The notes under the pieces: model-generated | What the model was told of the DNA's origin: nothing | Seen by the model: the letters and a program-made list of their open reading frames with translations, nothing else | Databases searched by the model: none | NCBI GenBank assembly: GCA_036490655.1 | Contig: DASXDM010000001.1 | Coordinates: 1,866-65,865, forward strand | Origin: Verrucomicrobiia bacterium | GTDB lineage: Bacteria > Verrucomicrobiota > Verrucomicrobiia > Limisphaerales > UBA11358 | Length of the DNA stretch: 64,000 nt | Direction: 5' to 3' | Part shown: piece by piece, positions 3,623 to 59,409 of the stretch | How the letters are laid out: each line of letters begins with the position of its first letter | Numbering within the stretch: position 1 is the stretch's first letter | Translations under genes and position numbers: made by a program

Positions 3623-3771
3623 ATGAGACAGAATTAACAGAATAGACAAAAAAACGGCAAAAGGAAGAAGACAGATTTAACACCAAGAAAACGAAGGGAA
3701 CAAAGAAAGACAGCATTTTTCGGGAAAAGCAGAGGGAAGAACAGACAGAATCAACGGAATTTAATTTAAAT

Positions 3772-4428
3772 TTGAAAAATCCAACTGTGATCGCCATTGA
3801 CGGCACGAGCGCAAGCGGCAAGAGCACGAATGCCAAGCTCGTCGCCAAATCCCTGGGTTATGTTTACGTGGATACCGGCGCGATGTATCGCACGCTCTCC
3901 TGGTATTGTCTCCAAAAGCGCATTGAGGTGAGCGACGCCAAAGCTGTGACCCTGGCTTGCCGGAAATGGAAGACCACCCTGGAATGCGTTGAGAAAAACG
4001 GCCTGCGCGTCGTGCATTTGCTGGTGGATGGATATTATCCGGAGGCGGAAATCCGCACTGCCGAGACGAGCGCCGCCGTGTCGCACGTGGCGGCCGTGCC
4101 CAAAGTCCGCGAATGGATGGTCAAACGCCAGCGCGAATGCATCCAGTTCGGCGACCTCGTCATGGAAGGGCGCGATATCGGCACGAATGTTTTTCCCGAG
4201 ACGGACTATAAATTCTATCTCGACGCGCAATTGGAAGAGCGCTCCCGCCGCCGCGCCGCCGACGGCATCCAGGAAAACCTTGCCGCGCGTGACCAACGCG
4301 ACAGCCAGCGCGCCGTCGCGCCGTTGATGATCCCGCTGGGCGCCAAGGTCATCAATAATTCGCAGATGACTTCTGCGCAGACGAGCGGATTGATTCTGGA
4401 AGAGATCCAGAGTCGAGAGAAGCGGTGA
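3772..4428 (+). CDS. cmk: cytidylate kinase
   Basis: VIAIDGTSASGKST P-loop followed by YVDTGAMYR. TTG start at 3772. Confidence 0.85.
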   Translation: MKNPTVIAIDGTSASGKSTNAKLVAKSLGYVYVDTGAMYRTLSWYCLQKRIEVSDAKAVTLACRKWKTTLECVEKNGLRVVHLLVDGYYPEAEIRTAETSAAVSHVAAVPKVREWMVKRQRECIQFGDLVMEGRDIGTNVFPETDYKFYLDAQLEERSRRRAADGIQENLAARDQRDSQRAVAPLMIPLGAKVINNSQMTSAQTSGLILEEIQSREKR

Positions 4429-11787: not shown

Positions 11788-12888
11788 ATGAAAAGAATTC
11801 TCGTCATCGACGATGAAGAGTGGTTGCGTGAAATGATCCAACTGGCTCTCCGTCAAAAGGGTTTCGATGTGATCGAAGCTTCCAACGGCACGGACGGGAT
11901 TGAAACCGCCCGCAAGGAATTGCCCGACCTGATCCTCTGCGACATCAACATGGGCAAAGTGGACGGGTACCTGACCCTCTCGGCCCTGCGCAACGAGGCT
12001 CCCACCGCCGCCATTCCGTTTATCCTGATGACCGGGCTGGCCGACAGCGCCAGCATGAGGCATGGCATGGAATTGGGCGCGGATGATTATCTGCCCAAGC
12101 CGTTCACCACGGATGCCTTGTATGCCGCCGTGGATGCGCGCTTGAAAAAAGCGCAGACCATCCGCGACGAAGCCGAGCGCAAACTCGCGCATCTGCGCGA
12201 TAACATCAGCCTGATGATGCCGCACGAGATGCGCACGCCCCTCAACGGCATCCTGTCCAACGCCGAACTGCTCGCCCATTCGGCCGGCACGCTCAAGCCG
12301 GCGGAGATCGCCGAGATGGGCGAGGAGATCCATAAATCAAGCCAGCGCCTTGAACGCCTCATCGAGAACTTCCTGATCTACGCGCAATTGGAATTGATCG
12401 CCGCCGATCCCAAAAACGTCAATGCCTTGCGTGTGGGACAGACGATCCATCCCATCGAGCTGATCAAGAAACAAGGCGCGATGCAGGCCGCTCATTTTGA
12501 CCGGGCGCGCGACCTGACTTTTGAAGTGGCGGATGTCGCCGTCCCAATGGCTGAGGAATACCTCGGCAAGATCGTGGATGAATTGACGCTGAACGCCTTC
12601 AAATTTTCCGACGCCGGCACGCCGGTGCGGGTCACGCTTGCCGAAGCTTTTAATGCTGTCACCCTGTCCGTGAGCGACCAGGGCCGTGGATTTTCTCCCG
12701 AGCAGACCACGCGCATCGGCGCTTACATGCAGTTCGACCGCAAGATGCACGAGCAGCAGGGGCTGGGACTGGGATTGACCATCGCCAAACGTCTTATCGA
12801 ATTACACGGCGGCACGATTTCCATCACGAGCGAAAAAGAAGTCGGCTCGGTCATTTCAGCTAAATTTCCGAAGAACAAGCCAGACTGA
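11788..12888 (+). CDS. hybrid response-regulator receiver / histidine kinase
   Basis: N-terminal receiver (ILVIDDE...DLILCDINM...KPF). H-box HEMRTPLNGI. ATPase boxes DQGRGF and GLGLGLTIAKRL. Confidence 0.85.
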   Translation: MKRILVIDDEEWLREMIQLALRQKGFDVIEASNGTDGIETARKELPDLILCDINMGKVDGYLTLSALRNEAPTAAIPFILMTGLADSASMRHGMELGADDYLPKPFTTDALYAAVDARLKKAQTIRDEAERKLAHLRDNISLMMPHEMRTPLNGILSNAELLAHSAGTLKPAEIAEMGEEIHKSSQRLERLIENFLIYAQLELIAADPKNVNALRVGQTIHPIELIKKQGAMQAAHFDRARDLTFEVADVAVPMAEEYLGKIVDELTLNAFKFSDAGTPVRVTLAEAFNAVTLSVSDQGRGFSPEQTTRIGAYMQFDRKMHEQQGLGLGLTIAKRLIELHGGTISITSEKEVGSVISAKFPKNKPD

Positions 12889-47016: not shown

Positions 47017-48549
47017 CTATTTCAACCCGCCTCTTGGGGCGGAAATTGAGCCCTGGGCAGATTTGGCCGGAGTGTTCAAGGATGCTGGTTCCAAAGTTTC
47101 ACACCAAAGGAGGATAAGGCCCAAAAACCAGGCGATGAAGAACGGATAGGAATAGCGGCCGACTTCATCGGAACTGCTGAACTGGATGATGAAGGACAAG
47201 TTGTTTTGGGCGGCGGGCAGGCAGGAGATCGTGAAAGCCAGGATGGAAAGCACGCCAATGATGACAACACATAAAGCAGTGGCGGCGAGGCGAGTTGATT
47301 TTTTCCAAAACACCATTGTTAGGACGAGCAGCAGTAACCAGGGCAGGATGGAAAGCTGGCCGTTCAAAAAAATGTCAAGGCCAGTCCATTTACCAGTCCA
47401 TGACAGATGGTCATGGGCATCGGGTTGCCACTGGAAAAAGTCGGAGCTGAAGAAGCGTCCGCCACAGTTCAGAAACAAGACCTGGGAAAAACGATGAAAA
47501 GTTGCGGCGGGTGCGGCAAATCCATCACGCCACCAATTCGATTCGGGATGCGCGATCGGTTTCTCCAGCCGAAACCAAAGATAGGGCAGGACGCTTAGCA
47601 AACAGATCAATGCGCTCCACCTCAACGTATGTTTCTTCAACCAACTTCGCCGCCGGCAGATTGCCAGCATCACACAAAACCAAACTGCCAAGAAAATAAT
47701 GCCTTCGAATTTACTCATGGCGGCTCCGACGGCTGTGAGCATTCCCGCCGCCAAATACAGTTCATCCGCGCGGACGATCGCTGTGATGAGTAGCATAACG
47801 GCCAGGCTCACAAAAAAGACCATGGGCATGGTCCCTCCTTCCCGGCGAATGAAATCGAGAGTGGCGGGCAGGAAGCAAAAGATAATGACAGCTAAAACAG
47901 GCAAGGGGTGCGGACGTTGCCAAACTTTTGCCAGTGAGAGAACTCCGACGCAGAGGGCGACGACCATCCAAAAGGGCCACACCTTATTGACGAACTCGTC
48001 CACCCCACCCACAACTCCGTAATCCAGGCAGTAGAGACACGGCACCAACAGGGGGTAATCCCAATGTGCATAGGCAAGGCCCGGTTGACGCATCCAGTAC
48101 AACAGATGAGAGCCTTGTTCCAAATACAACACCTTGGCTTTAAAGACCCAGAAGGCGTTGGCGTCGAATTCAAGGGTTCCTTCCAGGGTGGAGAGGCGTC
48201 CAAAAACCCAGCAATAAAAAAGCACGGGAAGCAAAAGTAGTAGCCAAAGTTGCTGCAACTGAAACTTGAACTGTTTCAGTTGTGCAACGGCAGGCGGAAA
48301 CATCAGGCAAATCTCTACGCCCCCCCAAAGGAGCGCGGAATAAGCCAGCGGGCCGGCGAGGTTGAACCCCGCCAGCGCTCCAGCCAATGCGGCTTGGGTA
48401 AAGATGAGCATTCCGACGGCTAGACCAAGAGCCCATCGCAATCCCGCGCCGAAACGGTCTTCAAATCCTTTACCCAGAAGCAGACGGTGGATTCGCATGC
48501 CACACAAAGCGATGGCCGGTGGCAGGATGAAGGCCAGTAAATCCTTCAT
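47017..48549 (-). CDS. polytopic membrane protein, paralog B of 32711-34228
   Basis: 510 aa. Collinear with paralog A along its whole length, roughly two-thirds identical by eye. Confidence 0.55.
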   Translation of the reverse strand: MKDLLAFILPPAIALCGMRIHRLLLGKGFEDRFGAGLRWALGLAVGMLIFTQAALAGALAGFNLAGPLAYSALLWGGVEICLMFPPAVAQLKQFKFQLQQLWLLLLLPVLFYCWVFGRLSTLEGTLEFDANAFWVFKAKVLYLEQGSHLLYWMRQPGLAYAHWDYPLLVPCLYCLDYGVVGGVDEFVNKVWPFWMVVALCVGVLSLAKVWQRPHPLPVLAVIIFCFLPATLDFIRREGGTMPMVFFVSLAVMLLITAIVRADELYLAAGMLTAVGAAMSKFEGIIFLAVWFCVMLAICRRRSWLKKHTLRWSALICLLSVLPYLWFRLEKPIAHPESNWWRDGFAAPAATFHRFSQVLFLNCGGRFFSSDFFQWQPDAHDHLSWTGKWTGLDIFLNGQLSILPWLLLLVLTMVFWKKSTRLAATALCVVIIGVLSILAFTISCLPAAQNNLSFIIQFSSSDEVGRYSYPFFIAWFLGLILLWCETLEPASLNTPAKSAQGSISAPRGGLK

Positions 48550-49034
48550 CTGAGTTGTCCCCGTGGAGTTAGGACGATGAACTGATGCGTATCGTAGTTG
48601 AAGACATCATCGAATCCGTTGCTCTGCAAGAGAGTAATTGAGTCACAGGGAGTTCCAATAAATCCCTGCTCGGAGTAAACCAGATTTGTTCCCAGCGAAA
48701 TCTCGATATCGTGAGGGAAAAGATAGTTACGCAGATAGAAATACATTCCGAGTCTTGGGGCATTCGTCTCCCCGAGCAAGCCGATGAGGAAAACACGTGC
48801 TTGAGGGTCAAGCGACCTGTCCAAATTCCGGTCGTCGGCACTGTCGATCCTGCATAACTGGTCTCTTTGGACGGGGTCGGTGATGTGGCGTAGGACATTG
48901 GCCCGGCGGATCATTGTCGCCATGATATTGGAGGAGGTGATAACCAGACCGAGCGCCACTCCTCCCAGCAACAACCCCAGCATCAGGGTTGATCCATTCA
49001 CAACGCGGCCAGACCGGTCGCGGTTTGCTTTCAT
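48546..49034 (-). CDS. single-pass membrane protein, paralog B of 34225-34782
   Basis: ATG at 49034; the ORF-track TTG is at 49079. ATGA overlap with the downstream gene. Shares the conserved C-terminal block with paralog A. Confidence 0.5.
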   Translation of the reverse strand: MKANRDRSGRVVNGSTLMLGLLLGGVALGLVITSSNIMATMIRRANVLRHITDPVQRDQLCRIDSADDRNLDRSLDPQARVFLIGLLGETNAPRLGMYFYLRNYLFPHDIEISLGTNLVYSEQGFIGTPCDSITLLQSNGFDDVFNYDTHQFIVLTPRGQLR

Positions 49035-49141
49035 TTCAACAATTTTGCCACAGACCGGTCGTGATGTAAATGTCGTCAATCCGATGCGGTGGGTTGGTTT
49101 TGGACATTGCTTTTTTGGAAATTGTTTTGGACGTTATCGGA

Positions 49142-50896: not shown

Positions 50897-50948
50897 AATT
50901 TGTCAAAAAAAATTGCCCATTTCGATTAGTTGCATATTATAAGCTGGA

Positions 50949-52661
50949 ATGAGTCATTTGAGAAACGTCCGTGTTAATTATTCCGGACGATGGAGCGGTA
51001 TTATAAAAGCGGTTTTAAGCCTGATAACAGGTTGCTTCTGGGCTATTTCCCTGCCCGCACAACAGTCGACCAATGATTTGCCCTCGGTGGACCTGACATT
51101 GAGGGGTTATCTCCAGCGGGTCATGCAATACAACCAAACGGTCCAGGCGCAAATGGTGGATGCTTTGGCGCAAACCTACAAAGTGAAGAGTGCGCGCGGG
51201 ATATTTGAGCCGCAATTCGACACCACGATCTCCATGGAAGCTGACAAGCGGCTGAATAATGCGGAACAACAGGCCCAGGATGGATCCAATCCAACCTATG
51301 AGGACAAGAATATCATTTACGGTGGAAACCTGGACATGTTGACACCCATAGGCACAAAAGTCCAATTGGGTGCCACCATGAGTGATTTGGAAAACAATAT
51401 AAATCCTAATGGCCTACTTTCGACTTACACCTATCCCAGGCAATACCAAACTTTTGCCGGGCTGACCTTGACGCAACCGTTACTGAAAAACGCCGGGCTC
51501 ACCCCGATCATGGCGGATATCCGATTGGCCGCGCTTGATTCGAAAATTGCATTCCAGGAATATCGCCGGCAGTTGATGCTGACGATTTACCAGGCACAGG
51601 TCGCTTATTGGAACCTCTATTTTGCGCAGCAGCAAATCCAGTTCTTTGACGATTCAGTTTCCGCAGCTAAAGAGGTGTTGAATGACAGCCAGGAGAAACT
51701 GAAGGCGGGGCAGGGAGCGCAATTGGACGTGATGGAGGCGCAATCGGCGCTGGCGCTCCGCAATACCAAGCGCAATGACGCGGTGCAAAATTATTATGAT
51801 GCATTGGGCCACTTACAGGTGCTGGCGGGAGTATCGCCGGACCCCACGCGGCCGGCCTCAGGCAGTCCGATGTTTCGCGCGGTGGATGATCCGCAAACCA
51901 GCAATTCGCCGCCATCCTATGCGGACACCTACGAGGATGGATTTACCTTGAATCCAGATTATTTGATCCAGCAGGAAAAAATGAACCAGGAACGGCTGCG
52001 CCTCGGGGTGGCTAAAAACCAATTGCTTCCGGAACTGGACCTCAAGGCTGCGTATGGCTTTAACGGTTTGGCAACCAATGATCCGATAGCTTCCTGGAAC
52101 AACCTTGACTCACAAGGTTATGTTTCGTGGTCCGCCGGGTTGGAATTGATCATCCCATTGGGCGGCAACATCAAGGGGCGCAATGACCTGAAAGGAGCGC
52201 GGCTGCACCTGCAAGAGGCGTACATCAATCTCAAGGGAGTGGAGACGGAAATGGCCAATAGTTTGAGCACTTCCATCCAAAAAGCGCGGGCATGGCAGCA
52301 GAGCATCCAAAGTTACCAATCGGTGGTGGATTACAACCAGGTGTTGTACCAGACGCAACTGGCGCGGCTGAAAGCCGGTACTGTGCAGGCGCAATCGGTA
52401 TTGGATGCGGAAGCCGACTGGCTGGATTCGCGCCAGGATTTGGCCGGGGCGCTTTCGCAATATCATCAGACACTCCTGCAGATCGAATTGGCCGACGGCG
52501 CGCTGCTGGAACATTACAACCTGGAGATCTCCCAGAAAGAATTGCAGCAGCAAACCGAGGCCATGCTCGAAAACAACCAAAATTATTCCGTCCCAAAAAT
52601 TCCGCCGGCACCGGATGAATTTCCGCCTATGCCGCCCCCGTCCAAGGATTTCCCTAATTAA
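50949..52661 (+). CDS. TolC-family outer membrane factor
   Basis: Signal peptide. Two-fold repeated helical/beta organisation with an OEP-like start (LTLRGYLQRVMQYNQTVQAQ...). First gene of the four-gene operon. Confidence 0.7.
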   Translation: MSHLRNVRVNYSGRWSGIIKAVLSLITGCFWAISLPAQQSTNDLPSVDLTLRGYLQRVMQYNQTVQAQMVDALAQTYKVKSARGIFEPQFDTTISMEADKRLNNAEQQAQDGSNPTYEDKNIIYGGNLDMLTPIGTKVQLGATMSDLENNINPNGLLSTYTYPRQYQTFAGLTLTQPLLKNAGLTPIMADIRLAALDSKIAFQEYRRQLMLTIYQAQVAYWNLYFAQQQIQFFDDSVSAAKEVLNDSQEKLKAGQGAQLDVMEAQSALALRNTKRNDAVQNYYDALGHLQVLAGVSPDPTRPASGSPMFRAVDDPQTSNSPPSYADTYEDGFTLNPDYLIQQEKMNQERLRLGVAKNQLLPELDLKAAYGFNGLATNDPIASWNNLDSQGYVSWSAGLELIIPLGGNIKGRNDLKGARLHLQEAYINLKGVETEMANSLSTSIQKARAWQQSIQSYQSVVDYNQVLYQTQLARLKAGTVQAQSVLDAEADWLDSRQDLAGALSQYHQTLLQIELADGALLEHYNLEISQKELQQQTEAMLENNQNYSVPKIPPAPDEFPPMPPPSKDFPN

Positions 52662-52667
52662 ATCGCC

Positions 52668-53399
52668 ATGCTCTCAACTAAATTTTTTGGCCCGACAATC
52701 CTCTTCGTCTCAATATTCGCATTGGGCATTCCGGCCCACGCGGACACGATCCAGGTGACCGGCATCACCGAGCCGTATAATCGCGTGGATCTTGGGTTTC
52801 CCGATGCGGGCATCATCCATGTCGAAAATTTCCAGGAAGGTGACAGCGTTAAAAAAGGCGACGTGATCCTGGAGCTGGACAAGAATCTGGAGGCCATTGA
52901 GGTGACACGGACTGAAGCCATCATGACCCAGAACAAAACGGTCTATGAGTCGACGCTCCAGCTTTTTCAAAGCACCAAATCAGTGAGCCAGGAGGACCTG
53001 GACAAGTCGGCTGCGGAATATCATGTGGCCGCCGCCCAATACCAAACCGCTGTCCAGCAACTTGCGAACCGGCAGTTGATCGCGCCATTCTCCGGTACGA
53101 TCACAGAAATGCCGTACAAGCCCGGCGCGGTGGTCGCTCCGTATGTGCCGTTCGTCCAACTGGTGGACTCGTCGCGGTGTTATTTCAGAGGAAATGTGGA
53201 TGGGATCACGGCCTCAAAATTACAACTCGATGAGTCGGTCCAGATCCAGTTGCAGGGCGGCGAAACGGTTTCGGGAAAAATCTGCTACATCTCACCGATT
53301 GTGGACCCTGCGAGCGGATTGGCGCGCATCAAGGCGATTTTTGATAATACGGACGGCAAGATCCGACCGGGCGTTTCGGCCACCCTGACCGCAAACTGA
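52668..53399 (+). CDS. short periplasmic adaptor (membrane-fusion protein family)
   Basis: Signal peptide. Lipoyl-like halves GDSVKKGDVILELD and QLIAPFSGTITEMPYKPGAVV. C-terminal beta-barrel. Confidence 0.7.
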   Translation: MLSTKFFGPTILFVSIFALGIPAHADTIQVTGITEPYNRVDLGFPDAGIIHVENFQEGDSVKKGDVILELDKNLEAIEVTRTEAIMTQNKTVYESTLQLFQSTKSVSQEDLDKSAAEYHVAAAQYQTAVQQLANRQLIAPFSGTITEMPYKPGAVVAPYVPFVQLVDSSRCYFRGNVDGITASKLQLDESVQIQLQGGETVSGKICYISPIVDPASGLARIKAIFDNTDGKIRPGVSATLTAN

Positions 53400-53401
53400 T
53401 T

Positions 53402-55237
53402 ATGGAAAATGATTTCATACGCGCCCTGGAAGAACTGGCAGCGCTCAGGCAATTTTCCGGTGCCCCCAAGGATTTTTGGCCGCGTTTTCTCGCCGCCGCC
53501 GCGCGCCTGATCTCCGCGGACATCGCGGTGTTACTGCTGGGCAGTCCCGGCAAGACTCCGCATTGGTCGAAGATCGGCGATTGGGATTCCGGCTCCGGGC
53601 TCTCCCGCGTCCGCACATTATTCACTTCGCAGCTTGAACCGATCGCGGAACGCTGCCTGGGCAAAGGTAATTTTGTGGAGCAGGTGGACGCACCGACGGG
53701 AAGTTTCACCATCGCGGTCCGGCTGAAATTGTTGCGTCCGGAGGATGAAGTCATCCTGGCGGGGCAATTAAAAGATTTCACCGATGCCGCAGCACGGGAA
53801 TCGCTCACGCGCTTGCAATTGATCGCGGATGTTCCCATCGCATTCCAACAAAACCTGTCGGCGCAAAAGACGCGCCATGATGTCGAAAAATTTGCGGCCG
53901 TGCTTGACCTGAATGTGCCGGTGAACGAGGCCACGCATTTTCTCCCCGCTGCGCTCGCTTTCTGCAACGGCATCGCGACACGGTTTCGCTGCGATCGCGC
54001 GAGCCTGGGCTGGATCGAGGGCGGCTATGTGAAGCTGCGCGCCATCAGCCGCACTGAGCAATTTGACCGCCAGATGTCCGCCGCGCAAATGCTCGAGGCC
54101 GTCATGGAAGAATGCGTGGACCAGGACGAGGAAATCCTTTGGCCATCGCCCGAAGGCGTGACTACTGTGGCGCGGGACCATGAAAAATTTAGCGTGGACC
54201 AGAAATCCGGCAACATCGCCTCGGTCCCCATGCGCCTGGACGGAAAAGTCGTGGCCGTACTGACCTGTGAACGGAACGAAGCTCCTTTCAACGCTTCCGA
54301 GCTTCAGCAACTCCGCCTGGCTAGCGATCAAGTCGCGCGCCGGTTGAGTGAATTAAAACATTACGACCGTTGGTTTGGCGCGCGCTGGGGAGTGCATGCC
54401 CGCGAATATTTTGCCGGCTGGCTCGGGCCGGAGCATACCTGGAGCAAGGTTTCCGCCATTGCGATCGTCGTGGTGCTGGCGCTGCTGTTCCTGGTGCGCA
54501 TTCATTATCGCGTCGAGGGAAACTTTATTTTGCGCAGCGACCAGGCGGCGTATTTGACCGCGCCCTTTGATGGTTACATTGACCAGGTCTACGCCCGCGC
54601 GGGCGATTTGGTGACCAATGGCCAGCCGTTGCTGGCCTTGAATCGCAGTGAATTGCTGTTGGACCAGGCTTCCGCACAGGCGGATGTCTCGCGTTGGAGC
54701 CGTGAATCGGAAAAGGAACGGGCGAATGGAGACATCGCCGACATGCGCATCGACGATGCCCAGGCTAAACAAGCCCAGGCGGAACTCGACGTGGCGACCT
54801 ATCGGCTCAATAACGCCGTGATCAAGGCGGCCTTCAACGGAGTCATCGTCCAGGGGGATTTGCGTGATCGCATCGGCACACCGCTCAAGACGGGTGATGC
54901 CCTGTTCGAAGTCGCGCGCCTCGACACGCTCTACGCCGAGGCACAGATCCCTGAACGCGATGTGAAGGAAGTGCTCAGCAGTACGCAAGGACAGATCGCC
55001 TTTGTCACACAGCCAAAACTGAAATTTCCCGTGACGGTCCAGAAGATCGAACCGGCGGCAGTGACCCAAAAAGATGGCAACGTCTTTCTCGTTCGCCTGA
55101 TGCCAGACACCAGGTCCCAGGACTGGTGGCGGCCCGGAATGACCGGCTTGTGCAAGCTATCGGCGAACAAACACACTTTGTTTTGGATCCTGACGCATCG
55201 CACAGTGGATTTTCTGCGGATGAAACTTTGGTGGTGA
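53402..55237 (+). CDS. GAF-like sensor domain(s) + TM + HlyD-type adaptor
   Basis: About 330 aa cytoplasmic N-terminus, one TM helix (VSAIAIVVVLALLFLV), then LTAPFDGYIDQVYARAGDLVTNGQPLLAL, a coiled coil, and IKAAFNGVIVQGDL. Confidence 0.6.
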   Translation: MENDFIRALEELAALRQFSGAPKDFWPRFLAAAARLISADIAVLLLGSPGKTPHWSKIGDWDSGSGLSRVRTLFTSQLEPIAERCLGKGNFVEQVDAPTGSFTIAVRLKLLRPEDEVILAGQLKDFTDAAARESLTRLQLIADVPIAFQQNLSAQKTRHDVEKFAAVLDLNVPVNEATHFLPAALAFCNGIATRFRCDRASLGWIEGGYVKLRAISRTEQFDRQMSAAQMLEAVMEECVDQDEEILWPSPEGVTTVARDHEKFSVDQKSGNIASVPMRLDGKVVAVLTCERNEAPFNASELQQLRLASDQVARRLSELKHYDRWFGARWGVHAREYFAGWLGPEHTWSKVSAIAIVVVLALLFLVRIHYRVEGNFILRSDQAAYLTAPFDGYIDQVYARAGDLVTNGQPLLALNRSELLLDQASAQADVSRWSRESEKERANGDIADMRIDDAQAKQAQAELDVATYRLNNAVIKAAFNGVIVQGDLRDRIGTPLKTGDALFEVARLDTLYAEAQIPERDVKEVLSSTQGQIAFVTQPKLKFPVTVQKIEPAAVTQKDGNVFLVRLMPDTRSQDWWRPGMTGLCKLSANKHTLFWILTHRTVDFLRMKLWW

Positions 55238-55260
55238 AGTGGCAATCCGTTTTTTGATCA

Positions 55261-57417
55261 ATGGATAAAACATTCAGCGAATCCTGGTATCGGGTGGCGA
55301 ATCAAAAGATTTGCCTGCGGCCGGTCGTCAAGGTGCGCCGCCAGAATTTTCGCGGTGAACGCTGGATCGTCCTGGAAAATCCGTTCAGCAACCAATATTT
55401 CCGCCTGCGCCCGGCGGCTTATGAGTTTGTCTCCCGCCTGCGCCCGGACCGCACGGTGGAAGAAGTTTGGAACCAATGTCTCGAACGATTTCCCGATGCT
55501 GCGCCCAGCCAGGAATCGGTCATCCAACTGCTCTCGCAGCTTTATTTCTCCAATCTCCTCCAATACGACCTTGCCGCTGACAGCGCGCAATTGTTCGAAC
55601 GCTACAAGAAGCGCAAGCAACGCGAGATCGGTTTCCGGTTCCTGAACATCATGTTCGCGCGGTTTCCACTGCTGGATCCAGACCGTTTTCTCATCCGCAC
55701 GCTGCCCGTCGTGGGGAAACTGATCAGCCCATTCGGGGTGGTCTTATGGTTTTTGGTGGTCGGTTTTGGTTTGGTGATCGCGGCGGATAATTTCAACGCA
55801 TTGAAGGTGCAGGGGCAGGGGATCCTGGCCACTAATAACCTGATTTTGCTCTACCTGGGCATGATCGTCGTCAAAGGCCTCCACGAATTTGGTCACGCCT
55901 ATTTTTGCCGGAAATTTGGCGGCGAAGTCCATGTCATGGGCATCATGCTCATGATCTTTACCCCCATGCCTTATGTTGATGCCACCTCGGCGTGGAGTTT
56001 TCGCGAATGCTGGAAACGTGTCCTGGTCGGTTCGGCGGGCATGATCGTGGAACTTTTCTTCGCCGCCATCGCGGCATTTTTCTGGTGGAAGACCGGCCCG
56101 GGCATCGTGCATGCCCTGGCATACAATATCATGTTCATCGCTTCGGTCTCGACGGTCATCTTCAACGTGAACCCGTTGATGCGTTTCGACGGTTATTACA
56201 TCCTTTCTGATTTGTTGGAGATCCCCAATTTAAACCAACGGGCGGTGATGCAAATGCGGTATTGGGCTGAGCGGTTTCTTTTCGGCGTAAAAAATACCGA
56301 GTCACCCGCGAACACCCGCCGTGAAGCCGGCTGGCTTGGAACCTTCTGTGTCACCAGTTGGATTTATCGCGCAATCGTTTTCAGCGGAGTCCTGCTAGTA
56401 GTCGCCGACCGCTTTTTAATCATCGGCATCATCATGGCCATCGCCTGCTTGATTTCATGGGCGGTCACGCCCGTCGTCCGCTTCGTTAAATACCTTTCAT
56501 CCAATCCGCGATTGGACCGTGTGCGGCATCGCGCTGTTGGTGTGACGGTGGGGATCGCGGCGTTCCTGATCGTGTTGCTCGCCGTGATACCATTTCCGTA
56601 TTCATTCCGCGCGCCGGGCATTGTCGTTGCCTCGGAACGGACACAACTCGTCACCCTGACGGAGGGAAGGGTTGTCCGCTTGCTCGTGCCATCGGGCACT
56701 CTGGTGAAAAAAGGCCAGCCGCTGGTCGAAATGACAAACCCGGAACAGGATCAATTACTGGTCAGTACGCGCGCGCATTTGGAGGAGATCCGCACGCAAC
56801 TGCTCCAGGCCATGTATACCAATGCGCCGGATATCGCCCCGCTGACGAGCCTGCAGGATTCAGTCGCTGCGCAGCTAAAGTCATACACCCGCGATGCGGA
56901 TAATCTGACGGTGCGCGCGCCGCATGACGGCGTCTGGGTGTCGCCACAAATAAACGAAATGGTGGGAAGCTGGGTGACGCGTGGGACTCAACTGGGGCTT
57001 TTGGCCAATCCGGCAGGGTTTAATTTTGAGGCCACGGTGACAGAAGACGACGCGCGGAATCTCTTCGCGAGAAAAATTTATTACGCGAACGTTCGCCTCT
57101 GGGGCAACGCGGCGACAGAGTTGCCGGTCGCCGGTTGGCGGGTGATTCCCGGTGGCCAAAACAACCTGCCTTCGGCGGCCTTGGGCTGGGCTGGTGGCGG
57201 AGATATCCCTGTGGCCATGGATGAGGGCCCGCAAGACCAGGGGACTAAGTCGGCAGAACCGTTTTTTGAAGTCGTCGGAAAACTTGATCCGCAAACCGAC
57301 ATTGGCCTATTCGACGGACGTTCGGGCAAGATCAGTTTCAGATTGCAAGCCGAGCCGCTGTTGCCGCGCTGGCTCCGCAGCCTGTGGCAACTCCTCCAAC
57401 AGCGTTACCAGATCTGA
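55261..57417 (+). CDS. peptidase M50 (site-2-protease-like) metalloprotease fused to a C-terminal adaptor-like domain
   Basis: HEFGH at nt 55882-55896 inside a TM region. A downstream NPLMRFDGYY motif. Later TM helices, then KKGQPLVEM ... LTVRAPHDGVWVSP, which are lipoyl/barrel-sandwich-like. Confidence 0.65.
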   Translation: MDKTFSESWYRVANQKICLRPVVKVRRQNFRGERWIVLENPFSNQYFRLRPAAYEFVSRLRPDRTVEEVWNQCLERFPDAAPSQESVIQLLSQLYFSNLLQYDLAADSAQLFERYKKRKQREIGFRFLNIMFARFPLLDPDRFLIRTLPVVGKLISPFGVVLWFLVVGFGLVIAADNFNALKVQGQGILATNNLILLYLGMIVVKGLHEFGHAYFCRKFGGEVHVMGIMLMIFTPMPYVDATSAWSFRECWKRVLVGSAGMIVELFFAAIAAFFWWKTGPGIVHALAYNIMFIASVSTVIFNVNPLMRFDGYYILSDLLEIPNLNQRAVMQMRYWAERFLFGVKNTESPANTRREAGWLGTFCVTSWIYRAIVFSGVLLVVADRFLIIGIIMAIACLISWAVTPVVRFVKYLSSNPRLDRVRHRAVGVTVGIAAFLIVLLAVIPFPYSFRAPGIVVASERTQLVTLTEGRVVRLLVPSGTLVKKGQPLVEMTNPEQDQLLVSTRAHLEEIRTQLLQAMYTNAPDIAPLTSLQDSVAAQLKSYTRDADNLTVRAPHDGVWVSPQINEMVGSWVTRGTQLGLLANPAGFNFEATVTEDDARNLFARKIYYANVRLWGNAATELPVAGWRVIPGGQNNLPSAALGWAGGGDIPVAMDEGPQDQGTKSAEPFFEVVGKLDPQTDIGLFDGRSGKISFRLQAEPLLPRWLRSLWQLLQQRYQI

Positions 57418-57465: not shown

Positions 57466-59409
57466 TCAATCCCCGCCCATTTTTAACACCACAATGCTGT
57501 TGGGCGGCATGATGCAATCGAAGTTCGGCTTCACGCATATTTCAGTTGTGACCGGGACCACATTTTGCGGGTGATCGATCGAGTTCGAGTCATCAGGATT
57601 TCCCGTTAAAGTGATCGCCTTGCCATTCAAGGCCGTTGTGGTCACTCCGTTGATATCGATCTTTACCGTTTCCGCCGTCGCTTCCGGATTGACCAGCTTG
57701 ATAAAAATTTTCCCCGTCTTGCTATCGCGCGTGGCGCAACCCTGGATCGACGTATCCGTGGAGACGGTTGAAAGGATTTCGTCGCCGACGTTACGACTGA
57801 ACATCTTGATCGCGTAATAACTCGGAGAACCATAGGCCGAAATCGCATCGTAACCGATAAGGTTCGGGCGCCATTGCCGCGCTCCAGGATTCACGTTCAC
57901 GAATAGTGGCGCGTAACATTGCATTTTTATCAGGTCGGAATTTCGTTCCATCGCGGCCATGAAAACGCCGTCGCCGATGGCATTTTTCAATCTCGGTGTC
58001 GGCGGTTCATTCCGTGAGGCCGCGTTCCACGGCGGGAATGAAGTTTCGTACGCCGCCCATTCGCCGACAAAAATTTCCGGACCATTCCGGTCGTAAGCCT
58101 TCGCGTAGTCCGGCGACATATGCACGAAATCATCCACCGAACGGTAATAATGCTCGTCGGTCGCATCAGGCTGTACGCTATGCACATGACTGTTGTCAGG
58201 TTGATCATTGCCGATCGTGGAGATCAATTTGAGCTGGGGATATTTCGCCTTGATGGCGTCATAAAATTGCGCGTACCGTTTGTCGTAGTTTCCGGTACGG
58301 TCGAACCAATCTTCGTTCCCAATCTCGACATAGTGCAGATTGAACGGCGCCGGATGGCCGTCGTTTGCGCGCTGTGCGCCCCACGTCGTGTTCGTGTCTC
58401 CGGTCAGATATTCAATCTCTTCGAGAGCGTCCTGGACGTATGGTTTTAGGTCAGGGCCCGCATTGACGAATTTATGGTCAAGGGTGTATCCATCGAAAAC
58501 CGCCAGCACCGGCTCCGCCTTCATGTCATCGCACCATTCCAGGAATTCCATAAGCCCCATCCCGTCCGTCGAGCGATAACCCCACGGGCCTTGATGGCCA
58601 TGCCGCTGTTCAATGGGTCCGATGGTCTTTTTCCAGTTGAATCGGTTAGCCAGGGAGTCGCCTTCCACATAATTGCCACCGGGAAAACGCAGGAATTTTG
58701 GATGGAGATCCACCAGCATTTGCATCAGGTCTTTGCGGAAGCCGTTCGGCTGGTTGTTCCATGTCGGCGGGAACAGCGAAACCATCCCCAGCCAGATCGT
58801 TCCGGGTTGGTCAAACGTGATGGCAAAATGCGCCCTGGCCGTTGGGTTCACTCGACCTGTATTTAGCGTCACGTCAAAATTCTTCCAGGTTGTCGCCAGG
58901 CCGGAAAATTGTTTGGAGGCATAAACCGTGTGACCATTGTCGCCAACGATTGACACTGTGACCAGCCCGGAAAAATTGGTATCCGCCCTTGCCAGGATGG
59001 TGGCATGATAAGTCGTCTTTGGCTGCACGGGTATGCCCCAATAACCGTCATTGGCCACGCCGGCAGGATGATCTTTTTCCGCTTTTGTCACCGTCAGTCG
59101 CAGGCTCATCGTGAGTTGGTCATCGAAAGAATTTGTGGGGTCCAGCGCCATCGTTGCGGCGGAGTTGTTATCGTTCACGACCGACCAATGGGCCGGCGAC
59201 GCGGCATTATCCAAAAAAGCGCGGTTTTGGATCAATTCCGCGTAAAGCCCGCCGTCATAGGCATGATTGATTTCCTCAGTCATCAAACCGTAGAGAATGG
59301 GACTGACCTTTCCGGCAGGGTGACTGGCGTCGACCGTGAAGGTGGGATTGGCTGCCAGAGAGGATATTCCGGCGATGGTCAAGGCCAGGAAGGTTGCGAT
59401 TTTTTTCAT
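57466..59409 (-). CDS. alpha-L-arabinofuranosidase, glycoside hydrolase family 51
   Basis: GGLYAELIQNRAF, LRFPGGNYVEGD, and YVEIGNEDW (acid/base region). Confidence 0.8.
   Translation of the reverse strand: MKKIATFLALTIAGISSLAANPTFTVDASHPAGKVSPILYGLMTEEINHAYDGGLYAELIQNRAFLDNAASPAHWSVVNDNNSAATMALDPTNSFDDQLTMSLRLTVTKAEKDHPAGVANDGYWGIPVQPKTTYHATILARADTNFSGLVTVSIVGDNGHTVYASKQFSGLATTWKNFDVTLNTGRVNPTARAHFAITFDQPGTIWLGMVSLFPPTWNNQPNGFRKDLMQMLVDLHPKFLRFPGGNYVEGDSLANRFNWKKTIGPIEQRHGHQGPWGYRSTDGMGLMEFLEWCDDMKAEPVLAVFDGYTLDHKFVNAGPDLKPYVQDALEEIEYLTGDTNTTWGAQRANDGHPAPFNLHYVEIGNEDWFDRTGNYDKRYAQFYDAIKAKYPQLKLISTIGNDQPDNSHVHSVQPDATDEHYYRSVDDFVHMSPDYAKAYDRNGPEIFVGEWAAYETSFPPWNAASRNEPPTPRLKNAIGDGVFMAAMERNSDLIKMQCYAPLFVNVNPGARQWRPNLIGYDAISAYGSPSYYAIKMFSRNVGDEILSTVSTDTSIQGCATRDSKTGKIFIKLVNPEATAETVKIDINGVTTTALNGKAITLTGNPDDSNSIDHPQNVVPVTTEICVKPNFDCIMPPNSIVVLKMGGD

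Follow-up and report, generated by a model that had tools for sequence, protein, structure and literature searches.

The closest described relative of the genes studied here is a module reported in silico by Kamneva, Poudel & Ward (2015, PLoS One 10:e0129066; PMC4452313), which is built around secondary SecA_DEAD proteins and resembles a type I secretion system (T1SS). Its neighbourhood consists of Peptidase_M50/HlyD, HlyD/biotin-lipoyl and GAF/HlyD proteins, sometimes with an OEP protein; its authors proposed that the SecA-like protein supplies the ATPase and that the M50 protein could be a pore, the partners were sometimes encoded elsewhere in the genome, and the biological role was described as 'completely unknown' (PMC4452313). 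We analysed a stretch of 64,000 nucleotides (nt), hereafter the window, from the Limisphaerales-like metagenome contig DASXDM010000001.1 of a Verrucomicrobiia bacterium, which carries an operon of four open reading frames (ORF1 to ORF4). This operon is a split-arrangement member of the module known in silico. Its four genes probably form the envelope-spanning half of a T1SS-like exporter, driven by a SecA-like ATPase, whose substrate would be a giant surface or extracellular protein with a LEPR-XLL leader.

Compared with the module of 2015, the window operon has the same component set and comes from the same phyla, Verrucomicrobia included, with the M50 protein in the place of an ATP-binding cassette (ABC) transporter. 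ORF4 combines M50 and HlyD parts, ORF3 combines GAF and HlyD, and ORF2 is a separate HlyD-type protein. The SecA_DEAD gene does not stand in the same locus and lies elsewhere in the genome, a variant that the published description allows; the window differs by this displacement of the motor from the operon, a trait of its whole sub-clade. The 2015 paper gives no cargo, leader motif or domain of the PqqD/RRE type (RRE, RiPP recognition element; RiPP, ribosomally synthesised and post-translationally modified peptide), whereas here a giant LEPR-XLL protein and a predicted leader-binding fold were identified. No experimental work on the module was found in the searchable literature, which covers subscription journals thinly; LEPR-XLL is named there in two papers only, as an aside in both, and recent giant-protein studies yielded no connection to the module. 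The link to LEPR-XLL cargo and the RRE as a candidate leader receptor appear to be new, being found in no searchable paper, that of 2015 included. An earlier note on this DNA had known of no experimentally characterised system with such an architecture, which still stands as far as that literature goes, but the architecture itself had been described in silico in 2015.

The four genes lie on the forward strand with gaps of 6, 2 and 23 nt, and a convergent gene for a GH51-type arabinofuranosidase (57466-59409; ASD1_dom and Alpha-L-AF_C) begins 48 nt past ORF4. The genes and their predicted parts, in window coordinates, are the following.

50949..52661, + strand: ORF1, 570-amino-acid (aa) outer-membrane factor of the TolC/OEP family (Pfam OEP, 5.7e-29)
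52668..53399, + strand: ORF2, 243-aa short secreted periplasmic adaptor (membrane fusion protein, MFP; NCBIfam RND_mfp, 1.1e-40)
53402..55237, + strand: ORF3, 611-aa GAF-transmembrane-adaptor protein, with a cytoplasmic N-terminal region of ~345 aa, one transmembrane (TM) helix and a periplasmic MFP domain
53975..54346, + strand: GAF domain of ORF3, aa 192-315 (Pfam GAF, 3.7e-07; GAF_2, 9.4e-07)
54449..54505, + strand: single TM helix of ORF3, aa 350-368 (Kyte-Doolittle peak 2.6)
54512..55171, + strand: periplasmic adaptor domain of ORF3, ~aa 371-590 (HlyD_D23, 8.1e-17; HlyD_3, 3.5e-15)
55261..57417, + strand: ORF4, 718-aa fusion of an RRE (PqqD-like) domain, a 7-TM M50/site-2-protease (S2P) core and a MacA-like adaptor
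55309..55566, + strand: RRE/PqqD-like domain of ORF4, aa 17-102 (Pfam PqqD 5e-4, below gathering; Foldseek)
55723..56589, + strand: M50/S2P-type polytopic core of ORF4, aa 155-443, with 7 TM-like segments (hydropathy, AF2 helices, Foldseek)
55882..55896, + strand: HEFGH zinc-binding/catalytic motif, aa 208-212 (H208, E209, H212; from sequence)
56164..56199, + strand: NVNPLMRFDGYY, second M50 signature, aa 302-313, with the third zinc ligand D310 (from sequence)
56593..57360, + strand: periplasmic adaptor of ORF4, aa 445-700, lipoyl and beta-barrel parts with an alpha-hairpin at aa 494-547 (Foldseek; HlyD_D23, 2.2e-06)

ORF1 scored 101.7 bits against PF02321 (OEP; E=5.7e-29) in two stretches, which gives the two OEP repeats of the family. 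Among the NCBIfam subfamily models, those for TolC (type_I_sec_TolC, 1.7e-24) and NodT matched below their own cutoffs. The N-terminus is hydrophobic (aa 17-35) and constitutes an N-terminal signal, with a possible lipoprotein signal and lipobox (…SLITG-C29) within window positions 50949-51053. With 570 aa, ORF1 is longer than typical TolC proteins, and it ends in an unusual Pro-rich tail, PKIPPAPDEFPPMPPPSKDFPN (window 52560-52661). The RND_mfp match of ORF2 is above its cutoff and is accompanied by Pfam HlyD_D23 (3.5e-15) and HlyD_3; a signal-like segment of aa 1-24 ends in …GIPAHA/DT. In ORF3, the GAF domain scored 31.2 bits, above the Pfam gathering score of 22.4, and both adaptor models, HlyD_D23 and HlyD_3, were also above their gathering scores, together with NCBIfam RND_mfp (3.9e-23). 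No PDB relative of the cytoplasmic region of ORF3 was detectable by sequence, and aa 1-190, ahead of the GAF domain, gave no domain assignment.

The fusion protein ORF4 carries both signatures of the M50 family, an HExxH motif and a motif of the NxxPxxxxDG type. In alignments of 41 and 47 sequences, reaching down to 30% identity, H208, E209 and H212 of HEFGH are invariant, and so are N302, N304, P305, L306 and D310 of the second motif (NVNPLMRFDG, aa 302-311). In the RRE region of the same alignments, W9, R48 and W70 do not vary, and P82 and Q84 hardly vary. The NCBIfam model daptide_HExxH (NF041824), which describes an RRE plus M50 leader peptidase, matched aa 19-403 with E=6.6e-52, at a score of 177 bits against an equivalog cutoff of 300, and the YydH/LiaK leader-peptidase model (NF058609) matched with 8.7e-8. 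RefSeq names some ORF4 homologues 'PqqD family peptide modification chaperone', and the precomputed Peptidase_M50 matches of the homologues are graded 'faint' or 'weak'. For structure comparisons, AlphaFold models (pLDDT 86-87) were searched with Foldseek. Residues 17-102 matched the leader-bound RREs 6JX3_B and 5V1V (target-normalised TM-score, TMt, 0.69-0.71; prob 1.0), and also 5V1U (TMt 0.67-0.71 and prob 0.99-1.0 over all three), with the winged helix of a three-stranded sheet and three helices that defines the RRE fold. The best match of the core was the S2P of M. jannaschii, 3B4R (prob 1.0, 220 columns, a moderate TMt of 0.43), which was also the sole PDB match of ORF4 by sequence; RseP (7W6Z) matched with prob 0.99. 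The C-terminal ~270 aa resemble MacA (3FPP, E=5.4e-13) as well as MexA, AcrA and EmrA (prob 1.0). The seven TM-like segments, predicted from the sequence, would leave the RRE on the cytoplasmic side of the membrane and the adaptor on the periplasmic side.

Much of what the earlier note had read from the letters agrees with these results. The four same-strand ORFs, their coordinates and gaps, and the convergent GH51 gene are exactly as it had given them, and its domain calls for ORF1 (OEP), ORF2 (adaptor) and ORF3 (GAF, TM, HlyD) were borne out by the scans with hidden Markov models (HMMs). Its call of an M50 protease fused to an adaptor in ORF4 agrees with the motifs, NCBIfam and Foldseek, though the Pfam scores are just below thresholds, and a PqqD-like N-terminus, which it had offered as speculation, is supported by the RRE fold matches.

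Compared with the RiPP leader peptidases that join an RRE to an M50 protein (NF041824, NF058609), ORF4 shares the N-terminal PqqD/RRE-like domain and the HExxH core, but it adds a C-terminal periplasmic adaptor and scores below the equivalog cutoff. Its genetic surroundings differ as well: it stands with TolC, adaptors, a SecA-like ATPase and giant proteins, and with no precursor or tailoring genes.

The full-length architecture of ORF4, ~715 aa, is represented by 4,283 clusters at 50% identity (E<1e-30), with at least 563 hits among GTDB species genomes. We compared 80 genome loci, together with annotated metagenome loci, in which ORFs were classified by seeds derived from the window and seed hits were given placement priority. 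Many of these loci are incomplete, and SecA adjacency was counted where 1 kb or more of sequence follows the M50-adaptor gene, which left 72 loci. The next gene, on the same strand, encodes a SecA-like ATPase (~660 aa) in 64 of them. A GAF-adaptor homologue was present in 70/80 loci, a short adaptor in 54/80 and an outer-membrane factor in 28/80. The module occurs in at least eight phyla (Verrucomicrobiota, Planctomycetota, Alpha-, Beta- and Gammaproteobacteria, Desulfobacterota, Nitrospira, Fibrobacter, Myxococcota and others), and a reciprocal survey that started from the SecA-like gene (metagenome scan, L010 query) agrees with the linkage to the M50-adaptor gene. Carriers of the module include Methylobacterium extorquens AM1 (META1p2399-2402), Vreelandella aquamarina QJJ-865, Marinobacterium mangrovicola DSM 27697 and Pseudosulfitobacter sp. 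DSM 107133. Among the 141 flanking or interspersed ORFs of the homologous loci, no family of the ABC, resistance-nodulation-division (RND) or major facilitator superfamily (MFS) type is recurrent, nor are radical SAM or other RiPP tailoring families or small conserved precursor ORFs, and no sigma/anti-sigma partner is conserved across the loci.

The SecA-like partner carries SecA_DEAD, SecA_PP_bind and P-loop_SecA, that is, both nucleotide-binding domains (NBD1 and NBD2) and the preprotein cross-linking domain (PPXD), and it has no SecA_SW match. It aligns to B. subtilis SecA over residues ~18-600 only; the wing domain and the two-helix finger are thus missing. Its score of 590 bits stays below the 800-bit equivalog cutoff of canonical SecA, and it resembles the SecA2 structures 6SXH and 4UAQ. 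Like the accessory SecA2 of Gram-positives and mycobacteria, it is a specialised second SecA associated with particular, often very large surface proteins; unlike SecA2, it stops at about SecA residue 600 and has no wing, two-helix finger or C-terminal tail, its hosts are diderm, and it is genetically coupled to adaptors, TolC and M50 and not to SecY2/Asp proteins. The same truncation, a DEAD motor with PPXD and no scaffold or wing, is found in the giant proteins of Omnitrophota and Actinobacteriota, which embed SecA_DEAD and preprotein-binding domains (West-Roberts et al. 2023, preprint, 10.1101/2023.11.21.568195) and for which a role in giant export was likewise suggested. There, the SecA-like domains are inside the giant and the neighbours resemble type II secretion and type IV pilus genes, whereas here the ATPase is free-standing, with ~660 aa, and accompanies an M50/adaptor/TolC module; those giants might unite motor and cargo in one protein.

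In databases the module is hidden by inconsistent naming. RefSeq and GenBank label the SecA-like partner 'prepilin peptidase' or 'DEAD/DEAH box helicase' (L110 18074-20098, L111 14213-16129, L109 17136-19121; also P0340, P0375, P0390 and P0409), and the labels of the M50-adaptor protein vary between the PqqD chaperone name, 'biotin/lipoyl-binding protein', 'site-2 protease family protein' and 'HlyD family efflux transporter periplasmic adaptor subunit'.

Within the 64-kb window, no SecA-like sequence was found by tblastn, and the domain scans showed no ABC, RND or MFS gene; the GH51 gene fills the position where the SecA-like gene usually stands. This arrangement is common to the closest relatives of the window (L091, L092 and L009, at 88%, 81% and 79% identity), while lineages at 75% identity or below keep the adjacent SecA-like gene. 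A metagenome scan with the SecA-like protein of L010 did not recover the copy of the window organism and found a split locus, L098. When the search was started from the L098 protein, the contig statistics of the returned proteins paired one-for-one with the M50 proteins of the window's clade. One of them, P0335, has the same sample distribution as the window ORF4, namely JGI 3300036790, SRR11832711 and SRR11833918, and the two proteins share the same longest contig of 872,670 bp. In the 88%-identical relative (L091/L108), the SecA-like gene stands 37.7 kb from the M50 operon on one contig. The displaced copy remains intact: it keeps GEGKT, DEADS and GRGTD, and its ratio of nonsynonymous to synonymous substitution rates (dN/dS) is 0.053. 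Against L091, dN/dS was 0.158 for ORF1, 0.19 for ORF2, 0.072 for ORF3 and 0.094 for ORF4, at unsaturated dS of 0.57-0.75; within the clade, purifying selection on the four window genes is strong.

At this second locus, both in the window organism (L105 1-9971) and in its 88%-identical relative (L108 1-9538), an extracytoplasmic function (ECF) sigma factor gene (Sigma70_r2/r4) and a gene of 227 aa lie divergent upstream of the displaced SecA-like gene. The 227-aa product is possibly an anti-sigma factor, and the pair could regulate the cargo locus. The same flank of L105 and L108 also encodes very large CsgG-like/EF-hand proteins of 1,033-1,516 aa.

The absence of ABC, RND and MFS genes, which the earlier note had stated, holds in the window and across the family, and its placing of the M50-adaptor fusion at the pump position is supported. 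Its description of the operon as pump-less does not hold: the look of the window results from the split locus, and the set, which recurs across phyla, is followed by a SecA-like ATPase in 64 of 72 loci and is not pump-free. The note had itself foreseen that homologous loci might carry an energiser missing here, and they do so in spirit, with one of SecA type and not of the ABC, RND or MFS type it had named.

In many loci, giant ORFs adjoin the module, with gene calls of 4,310, 4,974, 5,350, 6,803 (L009) and 8,210 aa. Overall, the conserved giant neighbours have 4,000 to 12,900 aa and an N-terminal LEPR-XLL leader "FELEALEPRVLLSAD"; their N-termini consist of a basic stretch followed by F-x-L-E-x-L-E-P-R-V-L-L-S-A-D, a leader peptide of this cargo type being KNTFELEALEPRVLLSADAL, and a moderately hydrophobic stretch comes after the leader. 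The NCBIfam model LEPR-XLL (NF012209) matched the Vreelandella neighbour (L054), and RTX (repeats-in-toxin) matches were found in the giant of L084. A motif HMM matched 26 of 7,984 ORFs (1.49 million residues), each time at the N-terminus, 7-35 residues from a plausible start, and all 26 sit beside the module. On four RefSeq-annotated plasmids, a giant gene of 12-39 kb stands immediately upstream of the module. Three of the four are named 'LEPR-XLL domain-containing protein' (Pontibrevibacter, 31.8 kb; Pseudosulfitobacter, 38.8 kb; Thalassospira, 12.1 kb), a RefSeq name used in L109, L110 and L114, and the fourth, a 26.5-kb neighbour in Methylosinus named after another domain, starts '...IIFDTLEPRVLLNADVLAV'. 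In the window itself the motif does not occur. In the window organism, an ORF of ~8,210 aa follows the SecA-like gene (L105, L106) and has an in-frame 'SRRSKNTFELEALEPRVLLSADAL' leader just upstream of the called ATG, the start being probably TTG. The leader was missed by the gene calls at L105 12300-12852, L106/L107 ~3770-3846 and L108 ~12390-12468. Since callers often choose a downstream ATG and cut the leader, automated annotation may under-detect LEPR-XLL.

In three alphaproteobacterial plasmids, a DUF3467 gene of ~95-105 aa stands between the LEPR-XLL cargo and GAF-adaptor genes (L109 12860-13141, L111 9735-10055, L114 9687-9983). It was not seen in Verrucomicrobia loci, and its product may be a cargo chaperone or accessory factor.

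The system that we propose would have six parts: the outer-membrane factor ORF1, the short adaptor ORF2, the GAF-TM-adaptor ORF3, the RRE-M50-adaptor ORF4, the truncated SecA-like ATPase and the LEPR-XLL cargo, the last two encoded at the second locus in the window organism. The N-terminal leader of the cargo would be captured in the cytoplasm by the RRE of ORF4. The SecA-like motor, which keeps the PPXD clamp and both NBDs, would then feed the unfolded polypeptide to an inner-membrane assembly made of the 7-TM M50 core of ORF4 and the TM helix of ORF3, a feeding step outlined earlier by Kamneva et al. 2015 (PMC4452313). By homology with MacA, AcrA and HlyD, the three kinds of adaptor would make a periplasmic tunnel that docks on the TolC-like ORF1. 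The HExxH...NPLxxxDG site of ORF4 would remove the leader, as in the daptide and YydH/LiaK RiPP leader peptidases, and the GAF domain of ORF3 might, speculatively, gate the process or dock the motor. More tentatively, the module with its displaced SecA-like ATPase may represent a distinct class of diderm secretion system for giant proteins of 4,000 to 13,000 residues, in which a RiPP-type element reads the LEPR-XLL leader, a fused S2P core removes it and a SecY-independent, SecA-derived motor pushes the polypeptide through an adaptor/TolC conduit.

Such an exporter would have much in common with classical T1SS (HlyB-HlyD-TolC, and LapBCE and other exporters of giant RTX adhesins): a TolC-family outer-membrane factor, adaptors of HlyD type, cargo that is very large and rich in repeats, often RTX- or cadherin-like, and probable one-step export. 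It differs by the lack of an ABC transporter of HlyB type, the motor being a truncated SecA homologue, and by three distinct adaptors, one fused to an RRE-M50 protease and one with a cytoplasmic GAF region. T1SS substrates carry a C-terminal signal, whereas the conserved candidate signal here, LEPR-XLL, is N-terminal.

Several points weigh against this exporter. In ORF4, Peptidase_M50 (PF02163) reached 24.5 bits against a gathering threshold of 27.2, PqqD 20.8 against 23.4 and HlyD_D23 27.6 against 30; we uphold these below-threshold calls because of the independent NCBIfam, alignment and fold evidence. Leader binding by the RRE and cleavage by the M50 core are inferred from the fold and from family relatives, and S2P cores are not known to conduct proteins. 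Eight of the 72 loci have no adjacent SecA-like gene, and six of these (L026, L045, L060, L062, L067, L069) are outside the window's clade. A giant or LEPR gene was found within +/-10 kb in only about a third of the fetched loci, many of which are incomplete, and the giant LEPR-XLL protein is the probable cargo on the basis of gene adjacency and the shared motif. The placement of both loci of the window organism on one 872,670-bp contig is deduced from their agreement in contig statistics and samples.

The main rival is a two-step route, in which the cargo crosses the inner membrane through SecYEG with a dedicated SecA-like ATPase, as with accessory SecA2, ORF4 serves as leader or signal peptidase and adaptor, and the adaptors with TolC move a periplasmic intermediate. 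The motor is indeed truly homologous to SecA and retains the preprotein-binding domain intact, S2P enzymes such as RseP, whose fold ORF4 matches, cleave membrane-embedded signal or anchor segments, and the stretch after the leader is moderately hydrophobic. The SecA-like protein, however, lacks the elements that engage SecY, namely the two-helix finger, the wing domain and the greater part of the scaffold; the leader is charged (E, R, D) and is no Sec signal peptide; and three adaptors, two of them membrane-anchored with cytoplasmic domains, better suit a contiguous one-step conduit. We consider the two-step route unlikely.

A truly pump-less processing and export of a small RiPP-like peptide, with the M50-adaptor as the only inner-membrane component, is very improbable. 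The nearest named relatives of the N-terminal half of ORF4 are RiPP leader peptidases, the RRE fold is present and the window has no energiser gene, and the earlier note had suggested a peptide substrate. No small conserved ORF or tailoring enzyme stands in the operon or recurs in homologous loci, the daptide score is far below its cutoff, and the conserved partners are the SecA-like ATPase and the LEPR-XLL giants, both present in the window organism. We give just as little credence to trans-envelope signalling by regulated intramembrane proteolysis, also raised by the note, in which the GAF domain would sense a ligand, the S2P core would cut a regulator such as an anti-sigma factor, and the adaptors and TolC would be a scaffold. 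S2P enzymes classically act in the regulated intramembrane proteolysis of anti-sigma factors, ORF3 has a GAF sensor domain, and the ECF sigma and 227-aa genes stand beside the SecA-like gene in the window's clade. These sigma/anti-sigma neighbours are not conserved across phyla, transport is indicated by a full outer-membrane factor, by three adaptors and by a translocation ATPase that has a preprotein clamp, and the RRE domain indicates a leader-bearing substrate. Both the peptide and the signalling readings were rejected on the evidence of the 141 flanking ORFs. That the operon is a decaying remnant which lost its motor, as the missing SecA-like gene at the usual position in the window and its closest relatives could suggest, is effectively refuted by the dN/dS of 0.07-0.19 on all four genes (dS 0.57-0.75), the intact catalytic residues and the intact displaced SecA-like gene (dN/dS 0.053), which is paired with a LEPR-XLL giant.

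Some homologous loci have further features. L114 likewise has no adjacent SecA-like gene, and in L060 an ORF for a DEAH/HrpA-like helicase occupies the place after the M50-adaptor gene. The junction between the GAF-adaptor and M50-adaptor genes holds a PIN-domain toxin pair in L092 (9196-9793) and a 23S_rRNA_IVP gene in L010 (9597-9977); the operon tolerates small selfish or unrelated insertions at this point. In Beta- and Alphaproteobacteria, several copies of the module include a gene of the SapC family (5 of the 141 flanking ORFs; L032 14241-15131, L047 14121-15032, L031 4808-5749, L110 17260-18081), SapC being known from the S-layer T1SS operon of Campylobacter. In Chlorochromatium, SapC stands next to a TolC gene and the giants Cag_663 and Cag_665 (preprint 10.64898/2026.03.19.712371), a neighbourhood which suggests that the Chlorochromatium giants may use a related system.

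The surroundings of the operon in the window are those of an ordinary chromosome of a polysaccharide-degrading Verrucomicrobium, with DnaB, BamA, GH10, GH43, PL4 and glycosyltransferases. A GH29 fucosidase gene ends 52 nt before ORF1. The gaps of the operon hold no small ORFs, and PADLOC gave no defence-system match for ORF1-4. The following promoter candidate lies before the operon.

50913..50940, + strand: weak sigma-70-like promoter match (9/12) in the 52-nt gap before ORF1, a possible operon start

The promoter scan gave 5 sites in the region against 3.9 expected from shuffles, which is indistinguishable from chance, and the terminator scan of the region was not above the shuffled expectation. 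Divergent from the fucosidase gene, a two-gene unit on the reverse strand (47017-49079) encodes 177 aa and then 510 aa with a 4-nt overlap; it has no Pfam match at E<0.01 and is kept in three assemblies of the window organism (L001-L003).

The locus illustrates that single-locus views can wrongly suggest 'pump-less' systems. The export of proteins of 5,000 to more than 10,000 residues is an open question in recent giant-protein surveys, and the Omnitrophota preprint (10.1101/2023.11.21.568195) asks how such giants are secreted. The link between the LEPR-XLL leader and the RRE turns the gene-neighbourhood observation of 2015 into a concrete and testable mechanism. If true, this would be the first SecA-derived motor working with a TolC conduit and the first RiPP-style leader recognition in protein secretion.

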